Virus record (IMG/VR): IMGVR_UViG_2671180433_000007
Length of the DNA stretch: 4,772 bases
Source: a virus
Taxonomy: Duplodnaviria > Heunggongvirae > Uroviricota > Caudoviricetes
Strand: one strand, 5' to 3'
Shown: in pieces, positions 1 to 4,772 of the stretch
Layout of the letters: each line of letters begins with the position of its first letter
How positions within the stretch are numbered: position 1 is the first letter of the stretch
Notes under the pieces: model-generated
Database searches by the model: none
Seen by the model: the letters and a program-made list of their open reading frames with translations, nothing else
What the model was told of the DNA's origin: nothing
Made by a program: the position numbers and the translations under genes

Positions 1-150
1 GCTTTCTACTGGCGGTTTGTGGAAATGGGGACCGTGAATATGCCACCGCACCCGTTTGTGCGTCCGGCGTTTGATGTGCGCAGTGAACAGGCAGCTCAGG
101 TGGCGATTGCGCGGATGAACCGGGCCATTGATGAGGTACTGAGACGATGA
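1..150 (+). CDS. 3-prime end of an upstream phage tail/neck gene (possibly HK97 gp10-like family), 5-prime truncated by window edge
   Basis: Frame 1 is open from position 1 to TGA at 148-150 and translates to AFYWRFVEMGTVNMPPHPFVRPAFDVRSEQAAQVAIARMNRAIDEVLRR. The stop overlaps the next start (ATGA at 147-150). Family assignment rests on position in the tail operon and recall of motifs, not a search. Confidence 0.6.
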   Translation, partial: AFYWRFVEMGTVNMPPHPFVRPAFDVRSEQAAQVAIARMNRAIDEVLRR

Positions 151-491
151 CGGAGGCGGATTTGTATCCTCATCTGGCGCATCTTGCCGGCGGGCAGGTG
201 TACCCGTATGTGGTCCCCCTGCTGGATGGCAGGCCGTCGGTGGCGCTTCCGTGGGTGGTTTTCAGCCTGATTTCATCGGTGTCAGCGGACGTGATGGGCG
301 GGCAGGCGGAGTCCTCAGTGTCGGTGCAGATCGACGTTTATGCCGGGACAGTGACGCAGGCGCGTCAGATACGTCAGGACGCCCGTGAAGCCATAATGCT
401 GCTGGCCCCGGGATCCGTCAGTGAAATGCAGGACTATATTCCGGAAAACCGCTGTTACCGTGCAACCCTGGAGTTTCAGGTCACGGTGTGA
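147..491 (+). CDS. tail completion / tail terminator-like protein (114 aa), functional analogue of the gene immediately upstream of the major tail gene in lambdoid phages
   Basis: Complete ORF in the track (MTEADLYPHLAHLAGG...EFQVTV). ATG overlaps the upstream stop (ATGA), indicating translational coupling. It sits directly upstream of the major tail gene and is of typical size. Function is inferred from synteny. Confidence 0.8.
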   Translation: MTEADLYPHLAHLAGGQVYPYVVPLLDGRPSVALPWVVFSLISSVSADVMGGQAESSVSVQIDVYAGTVTQARQIRQDAREAIMLLAPGSVSEMQDYIPENRCYRATLEFQVTV

Positions 492-519
492 CTTTTTCTT
501 TTTTTCTACAAAACCCATA

Positions 520-541
520 CCCCGCCGCGTGCGGGTTTTTT
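520..541 (+). terminator. putative intrinsic terminator / RNA hairpin between tail completion gene and major tail gene
   Basis: GC stem CCCGC (521-525) pairs with GCGGG (531-535) around loop CGCGT, followed by T-tract 536-541. The major tail RBS AGGAGG (548-553) and ATG 558 lie just downstream. Confidence 0.5.
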
Positions 542-557
542 ATTATCAGGAGGCAGA

Positions 558-1274
558 ATGTCTGCTTTGTATGAACGCTCACAGCTGACGCAGGTGATGA
601 TTTCATCTGCCCCGGCGACTGCTGAAACTATGGATAAGGCGGAATATCTGCGCCTGGACTGCACCATCAAGGAAGTGCAGTTCACCGCCGGGCAGAAACA
701 GGATATTGATGTGACCACGCTCTGCTCCACAGAGCAGGAGAACATCAACGGTCTGGGGGCGTCGTCCGAGATTTCCATGTCGGGTAATTTTTATCTGAAT
801 CAGGCCCAGAACGCCCTGCGTGATGCCTATGACAATGACACGGTGTATGCGTTTAAGGTGCAGTTTCCGTCCGGTAAGGGCTTTAAGTTCCTGGCGGAAG
901 TGCGTCAGCACACCTGGTCATCCGGTACCAACGGCGTGGTGGCTGCAACGTTCTCACTTCGCCTGAAGGGTAAACCGGTGTCCTATGTGGTACCGCTGGC
1001 GTTTGTGAAAAATCCGGAGAAGACACTTACCGTGAATACCGGTGCGCTGCTGACAATGTCAGTCAGTGTCAACGGGGGAACGCCGCCTTATAAACACGCC
1101 TGGAAGAAGGATGGTCAGCCGGTAGAGGGACAGACTACTGACACTTTCAGTAAAGCCAATGCGCAGTCAGGTGATAAGGGGGCTTATACCTGCGAGGTAA
1201 CGGATTCTGCAGAACAGCCGCAGAGCATTACCTCTGATGCGTGTACAGTAACGGTTAATGGTGCGGGCGGATAA
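558..1274 (+). CDS. major tail (tube) protein, lambda gpV-like N-terminal domain plus C-terminal Ig-like domain
   Basis: 238-aa ORF preceded by AGGAGG at 548-553. The segment DTVYAFKVQFPSGKGFKFLAEVRQHTWSSG resembles the lambda gpV core motif (AYKIRFPNG...). The C-terminal ~80 aa carry Ig-like hallmarks (W in KHAWKKDG; Y-x-C in GAYTCEVTD). Confidence 0.9.
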   Translation: MSALYERSQLTQVMISSAPATAETMDKAEYLRLDCTIKEVQFTAGQKQDIDVTTLCSTEQENINGLGASSEISMSGNFYLNQAQNALRDAYDNDTVYAFKVQFPSGKGFKFLAEVRQHTWSSGTNGVVAATFSLRLKGKPVSYVVPLAFVKNPEKTLTVNTGALLTMSVSVNGGTPPYKHAWKKDGQPVEGQTTDTFSKANAQSGDKGAYTCEVTDSAEQPQSITSDACTVTVNGAGG

Positions 1275-1279
1275 GGCTT

Positions 1280-1654
1280 ATGGCAAAAGATCTGAAAACA
1301 CTGGCGCTGGCCAGACTGTCGGGGTTCCGTCATAAAACGGTGAAGGTGCCGGAATGGGGAAATGTCAGCGTGGTGCTGCGGGAGCCTTCGGCAGAGGCCT
1401 GGTATCTGTGGCAGGAAGTGCTCAATGGTGATGGAGAGGATGACGATACCCTGTCGGTGGTGGCGAAAACCCGCCGTAACCTGGAAGCGGATGTGACGCT
1501 GTTCTGCGATGTCCTGTGTGATACGGATCTGCAGCGGGTGTTCACTCCGGACGACCGTGAGCAGGTGCTGGCCGTCTATGGTCCGGTACATGCCCGGTTG
1601 CTGCGTCAGGCACTGGAACTGATCGCTGATGCAGAGTCGGCCAGAAAAAAGTAG
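1280..1654 (+). CDS. tail assembly chaperone (lambda gpG functional analogue)
   Basis: 124-aa acidic ORF immediately after the major tail gene. It ends ...ESARKK with the slippery heptamer A_AAA_AAG at 1645-1651 directly before its TAG stop (1652-1654). This is the conserved G/GT arrangement between major tail and tape measure genes. Confidence 0.88.
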   Translation: MAKDLKTLALARLSGFRHKTVKVPEWGNVSVVLREPSAEAWYLWQEVLNGDGEDDDTLSVVAKTRRNLEADVTLFCDVLCDTDLQRVFTPDDREQVLAVYGPVHARLLRQALELIADAESARKK

Positions 1655-1959
1655 CCCGCCCGGAAATTCGCTTTCTGATGCGACTTGCACTCCGTCTGGG
1701 GCGCACCTTATCCGAACTGGGCCACAGTCTGAGTGCGAGCGAGGCGATGATGTGGATGGAGTTCGACAGGGTGTCTCCGCTGGGCGATGAGCGCGGGGAT
1801 ATCCGTAATGCGCAGATCGTGAAAGCGGTTTTCGGGGCGCAGGGGATGAATGTTGCACTGGAGGACGCCATGCTCTGCTGGGGCGAGGATGAGGACAAGC
1901 CGGAGGTGGATCCGTTTGCGGCGCTGGAAGACGCGCTGAGCCTTGCAGCAATGTCATAA
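1280..1959 (+). CDS. tail assembly chaperone G-T fusion made by -1 frameshift at 1645-1651 (predicted ~226 aa)
   Basis: Predicted junction peptide is ...ESARKK-VARPEIRFL-MRLALRLGRTLSEL... The -1 frame is open from the slip site to TAA at 1957-1959. The T segment (track ORF 1678-1959) has no convincing RBS of its own. Confidence 0.7.
1645..1651 (+). promoter_or_regulatory. -1 programmed ribosomal frameshift slippery heptamer A_AAA_AAG
   Basis: Zero-frame codons are AAA (1646-1648) and AAG (1649-1651). A -1 slip puts ribosomes into the frame that is open through the T ORF to the stop at 1957-1959. G is in frame 2 and T in frame 1, i.e. exactly -1. Confidence 0.75.
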
Positions 1960-1968
1960 ATAATGATG

Positions 1969-1994
1969 AAAACCTGCTGTGGCAGGTTTTTTTT
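1969..1994 (+). terminator. putative intrinsic terminator between T segment and tape measure gene
   Basis: Stem AAAACCTGC (1969-1977) pairs with GCAGGTTTT (1982-1990) around loop TGTG (1978-1981), followed by a run of 8 T (1987-1994). RBS GGAG (1999-2002) and ATG 2011 follow. Confidence 0.6.
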
Positions 1995-2010
1995 GCCCGG
2001 AGAAAGGTGA

Positions 2011-2808
2011 ATGGCGACGTTACGTGAACTGATTATCAAAATTTCGGCAAATTCGCAGTCATTCCAGTCGGAGATCCAGCGGGCTTCCCGTATGGGCAGT
2101 GAATATTACCGGACCCTGCAGAATGGCGGGCGTCAGGCCGCTGCGGCAGCCCGGGAGCAGCGACGTGCCCTGGCAGAACTGAACAGCCAGTTGACGGAAA
2201 TTCGCGCTTCGGCTGTCGGAATGGCTGGCGCATTTGCCGGTGCCTTTGCCACCGGACACCTGATTTCACTGGCTGATGAGTGGAGTTCCGTGAATGCCCG
2301 TCTGAAACAGGCATCACAGTCATCCGATGAATTTTCGTCATCACAGAAAGTGCTGATGGATATCAGTCAGCGGACAGGTACCGCTTTTTCGGATAATGCG
2401 GCCCTGTTTGCCCGTTCGGCTGCCTCGATGCGTGAATATGGTTACAGTGCTGATGATGTGCTGAAGGTGACGGAGGCCATTTCCACGGGGCTGAAAATCT
2501 CCGGTGCCAGTACGGCTGAGGCGGGTTCGGTGATCACCCAGTTCAGCCAGGCGCTGGCACAGGGTGTGTTGCGCGGTGAGGAATTTAATTCGGTCAATGA
2601 AAGCGGAGACCGGATCATTCGTGCACTGGCTGCGGGTATGGGCGTGGCCCGTAAAGACCTTAAGGCGATGGCGGACGACGGCAAACTGACGGCGGATAAA
2701 GTCGTGCCCGCGTTAATCAACGGGTGTTCACTCCGGACGACCGTGAGCAGGTGCTGGCCGTCTATGGTCCGGTACATGCCCGGTTGCTGCGTCAGGCACT
2801 GGAACTGA
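2011..2808 (+). CDS. truncated duplicate of tape measure protein N-terminus with chimeric out-of-frame tail; probable pseudogene or remnant
   Basis: Start and RBS are identical to the downstream tape measure gene at 3197. The first ~236 codons (to ...KVVPALI, about 2718) match it exactly. At the duplication junction (2720/2721) translation enters the duplicated G segment out of frame, giving 29 unrelated residues (NGCSLRTTVSRCWPSMVRYMPGCCVRHWN) before the stop at 2806-2808. Confidence 0.6.
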   Translation: MATLRELIIKISANSQSFQSEIQRASRMGSEYYRTLQNGGRQAAAAAREQRRALAELNSQLTEIRASAVGMAGAFAGAFATGHLISLADEWSSVNARLKQASQSSDEFSSSQKVLMDISQRTGTAFSDNAALFARSAASMREYGYSADDVLKVTEAISTGLKISGASTAEAGSVITQFSQALAQGVLRGEEFNSVNESGDRIIRALAAGMGVARKDLKAMADDGKLTADKVVPALINGCSLRTTVSRCWPSMVRYMPGCCVRHWN

Positions 2809-2840
2809 TCGCTGATGCAGAGTCGGCCAGAAAAAAGTAG
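2721..2840 (+). pseudogene. start-less duplicate of tail assembly chaperone G C-terminus (last 40 codons) with second slippery site at 2831-2837
   Basis: Frame 3 encodes RVFTPDDREQVLAVYGPVHARLLRQALELIADAESARKK followed by stop, identical to the G C-terminus. That frame has a TAA at 2697-2699 and no ATG between it and the fragment, so there is no evident initiation. Confidence 0.6.
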
Positions 2841-2863
2841 CCCGCCCGGAAATTCGCTTTCTG

Positions 2864-3145
2864 ATGCGACTTGCGCTCCGTCTGGGGCGCACCTTATCCG
2901 AACTGCGGCACAGCCTGAGTGCGAGCGAGGCGATGATGTGGATGGAGTTCGACAGGGTATCCCCGCTGGGTGATGAGCGCGGGGATATCCGTAATGCACA
3001 GATCGTGAAAGCGGTTTTTGGGGCACAGGGGATGAATGTTGCACTGAAGGACGCCATGCTCTGCTGGGGCGAGGATGAGGACAAGCCGGAGGTGGATCCG
3101 TTTGCGGCGCTGGAAGACGCGCTGAGCCTTGCAGCAATGTCATAA
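2864..3145 (+). CDS. orphan second copy of T segment (93-aa ORF); expression doubtful
   Basis: Intact ORF, 91 of 93 residues identical to the T segment at 1678-1959 (G15R, E62K). It lacks an upstream in-frame G to fuse with and has no recognisable RBS. Confidence 0.4.
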   Translation: MRLALRLGRTLSELRHSLSASEAMMWMEFDRVSPLGDERGDIRNAQIVKAVFGAQGMNVALKDAMLCWGEDEDKPEVDPFAALEDALSLAAMS

Positions 3146-3154
3146 ATAATGATG

Positions 3155-3180
3155 AAAACCTGCTGTGGCAGGTTTTTTTT
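3155..3180 (+). terminator. putative intrinsic terminator, duplicate of 1969-1994
   Basis: Identical hairpin plus T-tract at offset 1186; precedes RBS and ATG 3197 of the tape measure gene. Confidence 0.6.
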
Positions 3181-3196
3181 GCCCGGAGAAAGGTGA

Positions 3197-4772
3197 ATGG
3201 CGACGTTACGTGAACTGATTATCAAAATTTCGGCAAATTCGCAGTCATTCCAGTCGGAGATCCAGCGGGCTTCCCGTATGGGCAGTGAATATTACCGGAC
3301 CCTGCAGAATGGCGGGCGTCAGGCCGCTGCGGCAGCCCGGGAGCAGCGACGTGCCCTGGCAGAACTGAACAGCCAGTTGACGGAAATTCGCGCTTCGGCT
3401 GTCGGAATGGCTGGCGCATTTGCCGGTGCCTTTGCCACCGGACACCTGATTTCACTGGCTGATGAGTGGAGTTCCGTGAATGCCCGTCTGAAACAGGCAT
3501 CACAGTCATCCGATGAATTTTCGTCATCACAGAAAGTGCTGATGGATATCAGTCAGCGGACAGGTACCGCTTTTTCGGATAATGCGGCCCTGTTTGCCCG
3601 TTCGGCTGCCTCGATGCGTGAATATGGTTACAGTGCTGATGATGTGCTGAAGGTGACGGAGGCCATTTCCACGGGGCTGAAAATCTCCGGTGCCAGTACG
3701 GCTGAGGCGGGTTCGGTGATCACCCAGTTCAGCCAGGCGCTGGCACAGGGTGTGTTGCGCGGTGAGGAATTTAATTCGGTCAATGAAAGCGGAGACCGGA
3801 TCATTCGTGCACTGGCTGCGGGTATGGGCGTGGCCCGTAAAGACCTTAAGGCGATGGCGGACGACGGCAAACTGACGGCGGATAAAGTCGTTCCTGCGTT
3901 AATCAGCCAGCTGGGGACATTGCGTGATGAATATGCCGCCATGCCGGAAACGGTTTCCAGTAGTATCACGAAGGTGGAAAACGCCTTTATGGCCTGGGTG
4001 GGCGGTGCGAATGAGGCCAGCGGGGTGACGAAAACGCTCTCCGGTGCGCTGAACGGTGTTGCCGGCAATATTGATAATGTGGCCGCGGCAGCAGGTGTGC
4101 TGGTTGCTGTCGGGGTTGCACGCTACTTTGGCAATATGGCCTCCGGAGCGATGTCTGCCACGGCAGGACTTGTGACGGCTGCACGTAATGAAGTTGCACT
4201 GGCGGAAGCACAGTTCAGGGGAACGCAGATTGCCACGGCGCGGGCAAGGGCAGCCGTGTACCGTGCTCAGCAGGCCGTGGCGGCAGCCCGCGGGACGGAG
4301 ATGCAGATTGCAGCAGAGGCCCGTCTGGCGGCCACACAGGAACGCCTGAACAGAAATATTGCTGCCAGAACCGCCGCCCAGAATGCGCTGAACAGTACAA
4401 CGGCGGTGGGCTCACGTCTGATGAGCGGTGCGCTGGGACTGGTTGGAGGCGTACCCGGACTGGTGATGCTGGGAGCTGCCGCATGGTACACGCTGTACCA
4501 GAATCAGGAACAGGCCAGGGAGTCTGCGCGCCAGTATGCACTGACGATAGATGAAATCGCGCATAAAACGCCATCAATGTCTCTGCCTGAAGCCTCAGAT
4601 AACGAAGGGCGAACACGGGAGGCGCTGACAGAGCAAAACCGGCTGATTGATGAGCAGGCCAGCCGGGTGAAATCCCTGCAGGAAAAAATCGCCGGGTATC
4701 AGTATGTGCTGGCGAACCCGGGCTGGACGACCGGTGACGGATTCATGATAAACCATCTGACCTCGGTGAAGA
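3197..4772 (+). CDS. tail tape measure protein, 3-prime partial (runs off window end)
   Basis: ATG 3197 is preceded by GGAG. Codon-by-codon reading shows frame 2 open to position 4772 (over 525 codons). The product is Ala/Gln/Arg-rich with long helical segments and two hydrophobic stretches, typical of tape measure proteins, and sits directly after G/GT. Confidence 0.9.
   Translation, partial: MATLRELIIKISANSQSFQSEIQRASRMGSEYYRTLQNGGRQAAAAAREQRRALAELNSQLTEIRASAVGMAGAFAGAFATGHLISLADEWSSVNARLKQASQSSDEFSSSQKVLMDISQRTGTAFSDNAALFARSAASMREYGYSADDVLKVTEAISTGLKISGASTAEAGSVITQFSQALAQGVLRGEEFNSVNESGDRIIRALAAGMGVARKDLKAMADDGKLTADKVVPALISQLGTLRDEYAAMPETVSSSITKVENAFMAWVGGANEASGVTKTLSGALNGVAGNIDNVAAAAGVLVAVGVARYFGNMASGAMSATAGLVTAARNEVALAEAQFRGTQIATARARAAVYRAQQAVAAARGTEMQIAAEARLAATQERLNRNIAARTAAQNALNSTTAVGSRLMSGALGLVGGVPGLVMLGAAAWYTLYQNQEQARESARQYALTIDEIAHKTPSMSLPEASDNEGRTREALTEQNRLIDEQASRVKSLQEKIAGYQYVLANPGWTTGDGFMINHLTSVK

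Follow-up and report, generated by a model that had tools for sequence, protein, structure and literature searches.

The window analysed here, a stretch of 4,772 nt, carries a lambdoid tail module of the Stx-phage type on its plus strand, in which a unit of 1186 bp seems to occur twice in direct succession. The question raised by this locus is whether a phage has duplicated this part of its tail genes in tandem, so that two diverged copies of the tail gene T stand side by side, or whether this order was made in the course of assembly. It is proposed that the "tandem duplication" of 1186 bp arose in assembly, as an unmerged contig overlap of 1185 bp, a reading to which we assign a probability of about 90%.

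The gene calls and other features are collected in Table 1. A G/T pair of tail chaperone genes is recognised by adjacent PF06222 and PF06223 open reading frames located between the major tail and tape measure genes. The 3' end of G reads AGA AAA AAG TAG, and inspection of the open reading frames revealed that the −1 frame has no stop codon from 1651 to 1959, i.e. into T. The slippery heptamer together with this open −1 frame makes up the classic G/GT arrangement, from which a G-T fusion product would be predicted. Among 99 related loci, 98 preserve the heptamer A AAA AAG. In the exception, the IMG/VR locus L024, one A is missing from the slippery run at the equivalent of 1645, which may either create an in-frame G-T fusion made without frameshifting or be a homopolymer sequencing error. 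When about 100 related loci are compared, the hairpin and T run downstream of T take one of two sequences, AAAACCTGCTGTGGCAGGTTTT or GAGAACCGCTGAGGCGGTT. Either is able to form the stem, and this suggests a conserved stem-loop or a terminator within the late tail operon. The diversity hot spot of the module is 1101-1300 (the Ig-like C-terminus of the major tail protein and the V/G boundary), with a pi of 0.10-0.16 versus 0.01-0.06 elsewhere; L084 and L103 have an entirely different version of this region. The 1,080-aa tape measure gene is found in two open reading frames in L082, L084, L089 (744 + 281 aa), L083 (479 + 590 aa) and L097, which suggests decaying prophage copies or sequencing errors.

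Table 1. Coordinates of the genes, contigs and sequence features discussed in the text, in positions of the window.
Feature	Position	Strand	Basis
Contig A of the scaffold	1-2719	+	Record with N at 2720
Tail completion gp17-like gene	147-491	+	Gene calls and Pfam families, L088
Major tail gene with C-terminal Ig-like domain; Phage_TTP_11/Ig protein	558-1274	+	Gene calls and Pfam, L088
Chaperone G	1280-1654	+	PF06222, L088
Contig A 3' terminal 1185 bp, overlapping the start of contig B ("copy 1")	1535-2719	+	Offset comparison
Slippery heptamer A AAA AAG, directly before the G stop codon	1645-1651	+	Read from the sequence
T (allele 1), −1 frame relative to G	1678-1959	+	PF06223, L088
T allele 1 patch, rare lineage, G15 and E62	1689-1861	+	Exact on seven contigs
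GC-rich hairpin, then T run, between T and the tape measure gene	1969-1996, again 3155-3182	+	Sequence
Tape measure gene, 5' part, contig A	2011-2719	+	TMP_3 tape measure protein, L088
Tape measure codons 232-233 (Val232, Pro233)	2706-2709	+	GTG CCC in contig A; GTT CCT at 3892-3895 in contig B
Scaffold gap, one base	2720	.	N in the record, rendered A in the window
Contig B of the scaffold	2721-4772	+	Record with N at 2720
Contig B 5' terminal 1185 bp, overlapping the end of contig A ("copy 2")	2721-3905	+	Offset comparison
G 3' end (last 40 codons), contig B	from 2721	+	Open reading frames, L088
T allele 2 open reading frame, contig B	2864-3145	+	Open reading frames; called 69 aa in the public record
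T allele 2 patch, common allele, R15 and K62	2875-3047	+	IMG/VR and complete E. coli matches
Tape measure gene, contig B, from its start to the record end	3197-4772	+	Open reading frames, L088

Direct comparison at an offset of 1186 sets 1535-2720 against 2721-3906 with 14 mismatches, of which 11 lie in T (1689, 1720, 1722, 1728, 1773, 1776, 1785, 1812, 1833, 1839 and 1861) and three near the end of the unit (2706, 2709 and 2720, the last being A versus G at 3906); the sequences between are identical over 154 bp (1535-1688) and 844 bp (1862-2705). The period, the 11 mismatches within 1689-1861, the three near the unit end, and the identity over 154 bp and about 840 bp had all been described in an initial annotation of this DNA made from its letters alone, and all are reproduced here. 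When the comparison is confined to the overlapping ends (1535-2719 and 2721-3905), the two sequences are 98.9% identical with 13 differences in 1185 bp, ten of them transitions. The differences are strongly clustered: none of 200,000 uniform placements brought 11 of the 13 into 173 bp (P<5e-6), nor did any of 200,000 such placements reach an 844-bp clean run, and the copies differ by 6.4% in T and by nothing over 844 bp. In the T open reading frame nine differences are synonymous and two are non-synonymous (dN/dS 0.06 by the Nei-Gojobori method; binomial P = 6e-5), the only amino-acid changes being G15R (GGC to CGG) and E62K, which confirms the count of the initial annotation. The changes at 2706 and 2709 fall on third codon positions in the tape measure gene and are synonymous, and are thus the same kind of variation as that in T. 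All 13 states of both copies are present as complete haplotypes in independent records.

The public source of the window was found by an exact-protein look-up with T allele 1. It is the complete draft-assembly record CYBE01000142.1 of NCBI assembly GCA_001286205.1 (L088), 4,772 bp long and matched over its range 1-4772, and it agrees with the window in 4,771 of the 4,772 letters; the sole difference is at 2720, where the record has N and the window A. The record reads gcgttaatca n cgggtgttca around this position, with GCGTTAATCA on the left and CGGGTGTTCAC on the right of the one base at 2720, and the N is the exact boundary of the repeat, at which unit 1 ends with 2719 and unit 2 starts with 2721. 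This N indicates a scaffold of two contigs, designated A and B, implying that no sequenced junction from the tape measure gene to G exists and that the 2720/3906 "mismatch" is no base call at all. The filling of the N as A had concealed the scaffold join from the initial annotation. An A at 2720 belonging to a "CAA" G allele of copy 2 was considered, as the G allele matches from 2718 and 1534 is polymorphic for A and G, and was rejected on the N of the record. The 265-aa open reading frame at 2011-2808, which consists of the tape measure N-terminus and 28 out-of-frame residues, and the second T open reading frame (2864-3145) are products of the artefactual join, and both are likely annotated as genes in the public record. 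No paper that mentions the accession GCA_001286205.1 was found in the literature.

The arrangement was sought in related sequences. Each match, whether in the 1,299 E. coli genomes or in the 94 phage records, covers about 3,586 bp, that is 4,772 minus 1,186, and merging of contigs A and B likewise gives 3,586 bp and restores the gene order seen in all relatives. All 80 of the 80 IMG/VR loci are colinear with the de-duplicated sequence, as are 19 further loci obtained by exact-protein look-ups (L088 excepted), and the duplication is carried by none of the 1,299 E. coli genomes, 94 phages, 80 IMG/VR loci and 19 exact-protein loci. A 160-bp query over the join found no place covered to at least 80% in 5,426 E. 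coli genomes, a 25-mer over the join does not occur in the GTDB representative genomes, IMG/VR or the JGI metagenome contigs, and a search for the 265-aa chimeric open reading frame gave no match. The module is present in a median of one and a maximum of seven copies per E. coli genome having it, with four to seven in many EHEC genomes, and is thus the kind of repeat where short-read assemblies break. A tandem duplication was to be recognised by a called junction base and by the same arrangement in an independent record, and neither was found. The three signs of a scaffold join, namely a gap character at the boundary, an overlap of contig end and contig start whose merging restores the gene order, and a location in a repeat region, are all present.

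The two T alleles differ greatly in frequency. Exact copies of the T allele 2 patch are present at 11 or more of the 80 IMG/VR loci, and identity to it is 99% or higher in 1,036 complete E. coli records. For T allele 1, the best identity is 98.0-98.4% over the 5,426 complete E. coli genomes and 96.3% over 50,697 phage records; none of these contains it exactly, and its nearest IMG/VR loci are L066 (three differences) and L001 (six). The T allele 1 haplotype, including 1689A and 1776T, is exact on L081, L082, L084, L086, L087, L089 and L090, seven independent draft or metagenome contigs that all have the normal G-T-tape measure order; in natural loci it forms a patch of about 170 bp, with a dS of about 0.25, in an otherwise consensus-like background. 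Judged from these sequence comparisons, both T alleles are real natural alleles, whose divergence took place under purifying selection and whose matches lie in different lineages. T allele 1 is exact on 21 draft or metagenome contigs, and its lineage appears to be under-represented among finished genomes. A T-protein scan of species-representative genomes yielded 600 pattern stretches, none of which was confirmed by tblastn; this outcome is odd given how common the T gene is in E. coli, and may reflect a limitation of the method.

The distribution of polymorphism in the population bears on the nature of the 844 identical bases. Across 80 related loci, polymorphism within the unit peaks in the tape measure 5' end (pi 0.057; 152 segregating sites in 695 bp), and T ranks with the least variable parts (pi 0.0125), a pattern that the two contig ends reverse, with T divergent and the tape measure 5' end identical. 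Among 3,916 natural pairs, 46 are identical over 1862-2705 and these have zero to three differences in the T patch; pairs with at least 11 T differences have at least seven (median 57) differences in 1862-2705. The combination of 11 T differences with none in the adjacent 844 bp is found in no pair of the 3,916. Because no natural pair shows the pattern of the contig ends, the 844 bp are most readily understood as a single shared or collapsed block present in both contigs, rather than as independently evolving copies.

Contig A has counterparts elsewhere. L081 and L087 are identical to the window over 1535-2603, and the loci nearest to the 844-bp block are L081, L086 and L087 (six differences), all of which carry T allele 1 and GC at 2706/2709, indicating that the contig A haplotype (T allele 1, tape measure 5' end and GC) exists in other samples; the GC and TT states at 2706/2709 are both common in the population. 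The linkage of contig B, T allele 2 with a tape measure block of the contig A type, is found in none of 103 loci, and a 75-mer searched against IMG/VR and the JGI metagenomes did not recover it either, the matches, L101-L103, diverging from 1918 onward. Contig B is either a strain-specific inter-prophage recombinant or a chimera produced by greedy extension. Its start lies one base past 1534, where A and G are both common among the loci (60:36), which fits an extension halting at this ambiguous site; the end of contig A at 2719 adjoins no polymorphic site in the population sample. Along the window the nearest neighbour shifts segment by segment.

The events behind the record are reconstructed as follows. 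The window is the whole of a short scaffold from a draft short-read assembly, lying entirely inside a lambdoid prophage tail module, in which contigs A and B were linked by read pairs and written with a one-N gap, and never merged. Contig A ends, and contig B begins, with 1185 bp that represent the same stretch, from the 3' end of G through T into the 5' part of the tape measure gene. The 13 real differences between these ends are natural allelic variants: A has the rare form of T and B the common one, and two further sites in the tape measure gene differ synonymously. The presence of both alleles in one assembly points to a strain that probably had two or more related prophages, which the assembler presumably could not phase over the 844 bp that they share or that were collapsed. 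In a widely used pipeline, SSPACE and GapFiller are greedy programs for which false joins are possible, and joins are written as N gaps (PMC5320598). GapFiller extends base by base from both gap edges, and gap closure requires an overlap of 10 nt or more between the extensions and a filled length no more than 50 nt off the estimate (PMC3446322); scaffolders are also known to put gaps between overlapping contigs (PMC5368935). We infer that a pipeline of the SSPACE/GapFiller type may have been the origin of the CYBE01 join. A more specific model, in which contig B is a GapFiller 30-mer majority-vote walk that starts in a prophage X and passes to the common allele, fits the stop at 1534 and does not fully reproduce contig B: the equivalent of the rare 1896C is kept, 34 nt from the switch of T allele.

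The opposing explanation is a real 1186-bp tandem duplication, brought about by illegitimate or unequal recombination of two related phages, with the N being an ambiguous base that fell there by chance. The natural T alleles that match different lineages would agree with such an event, and so would the join itself if N is G, since CAGC, shared by the two parent sequences, would then provide 4 bp of microhomology at the junction, the one feature that resembles real illegitimate recombination; the three known bases flanking the N would match by chance in about 1.6% of cases. Together with the non-polymorphic end of contig A, the microhomology leads us to keep a small probability, a few per cent, on a real duplication. 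The single N in 4,772 bases sits on the junction, whereas a true junction would have reads and a base call; moreover, the junction is absent from the 5,426 E. coli genomes, the GTDB representatives, IMG/VR and the JGI metagenomes, no relative has the duplicated arrangement, and the product would truncate the tape measure gene out of frame. We therefore consider a real duplication very improbable, and illegitimate recombination of two different phages X and Y was considered and rejected as the main reading on the N and the natural-pair comparison. The narrower form of this idea, that the N conceals a true G'-T-TMP' tandem duplication formed across CAGC between co-resident prophages, is slightly less probable still. 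If it were true, the prophage would have two T genes of different allele and, ahead of an intact tape measure gene, a copy truncated out of frame.

The least credible explanation is that of a recent duplicate decaying in situ, or of sequencing or consensus errors, for which nothing specific speaks beyond the contig being short and from a draft assembly; the clustering of the differences, the excess of synonymous changes in T and the proportion of transitions are against it, and the exact haplotype matches in other samples already refute it. A further alternative accepts that the join is artefactual and assigns the second allele to a mixed culture or to contaminating E. coli reads. It would accommodate the contig B linkage that is missing from the 103 loci and from the 75-mer scans, and minority reads could feed a greedy extension. 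Co-resident prophages are nevertheless the simpler source, several copies of the module being common in E. coli, and contamination is without direct evidence, so this alternative is unlikely, if less so than a real duplication. The unmerged contig overlap is retained as the preferred reading.

Taken together, the interpretation given in the initial annotation is partly supported. Its proposal that the alleles diverged under purifying selection in different phages, and not by in-situ decay of a recent duplicate, agrees with both haplotypes being intact in independent samples and with the clustering, and the separate matching of each T allele that it had suggested did yield distinct lineages, one common and one rare. 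Its further proposal that recombination brought the alleles together in a tandem repeat is not supported, the join being N in the record and the tandem order having been made by the scaffolder. Assembly noise, which it had itself named as a danger to its reading, does account for the arrangement but not for the SNPs, which recur as exact haplotypes elsewhere. The lambdoid mosaicism that it had invoked holds for the remaining signal, which is allelic mosaicism of the ordinary kind in the tail module of a lambdoid prophage. The real remainder, a rare and a common T allele with mostly synonymous differences, is ordinary for lambdoid prophages. The case carries a warning, in that one N filled with a base made a scaffold join resemble a tandem duplication with "selected allelic variation"; claims on a duplicated T, a truncated tape measure gene or recombination in the phage would be spurious.

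Among known systems, the closest parallel is the artificial duplication that flanks a scaffold gap in assemblies of the SSPACE/GapFiller type. As in such cases, the end of contig A matches the start of contig B with a minimal N gap between them, the merged version fits the relatives, and the scaffold lies within a multi-copy repeat. The overlap of 1185 bp, by contrast, is long for such artefacts, and the 13 mismatches may have prevented the merging of the two contigs.

The gene content itself resembles that of phage lambda, in which the tail assembly chaperones gpG and gpGT are made by a programmed −1 frameshift. This system is reportedly described by Levin, Hendrix and Casjens in 1993 and by Xu, Hendrix and Duda in 2004. 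The same order of major tail, G, T and tape measure genes is found here, with a PF06222 G, a PF06223 T in the −1 frame and the heptamer before the G stop; the sequences differ in belonging to Stx-phage-type and HK97-like tail modules, and the frameshift is a prediction from the sequence. With regard to the alleles, lambdoid prophage mosaicism and inter-prophage recombination in E. coli are said to have been treated by Asadulghani et al. in 2009 for the O157 prophage pool. Unlike in that pool, the juxtaposition of alleles in the present case was made by assembly, and no recombination event is shown in the strain; what the two have in common is the segment-wise change of nearest neighbour and, in natural loci, a T allele 1 patch set in a consensus-like background.
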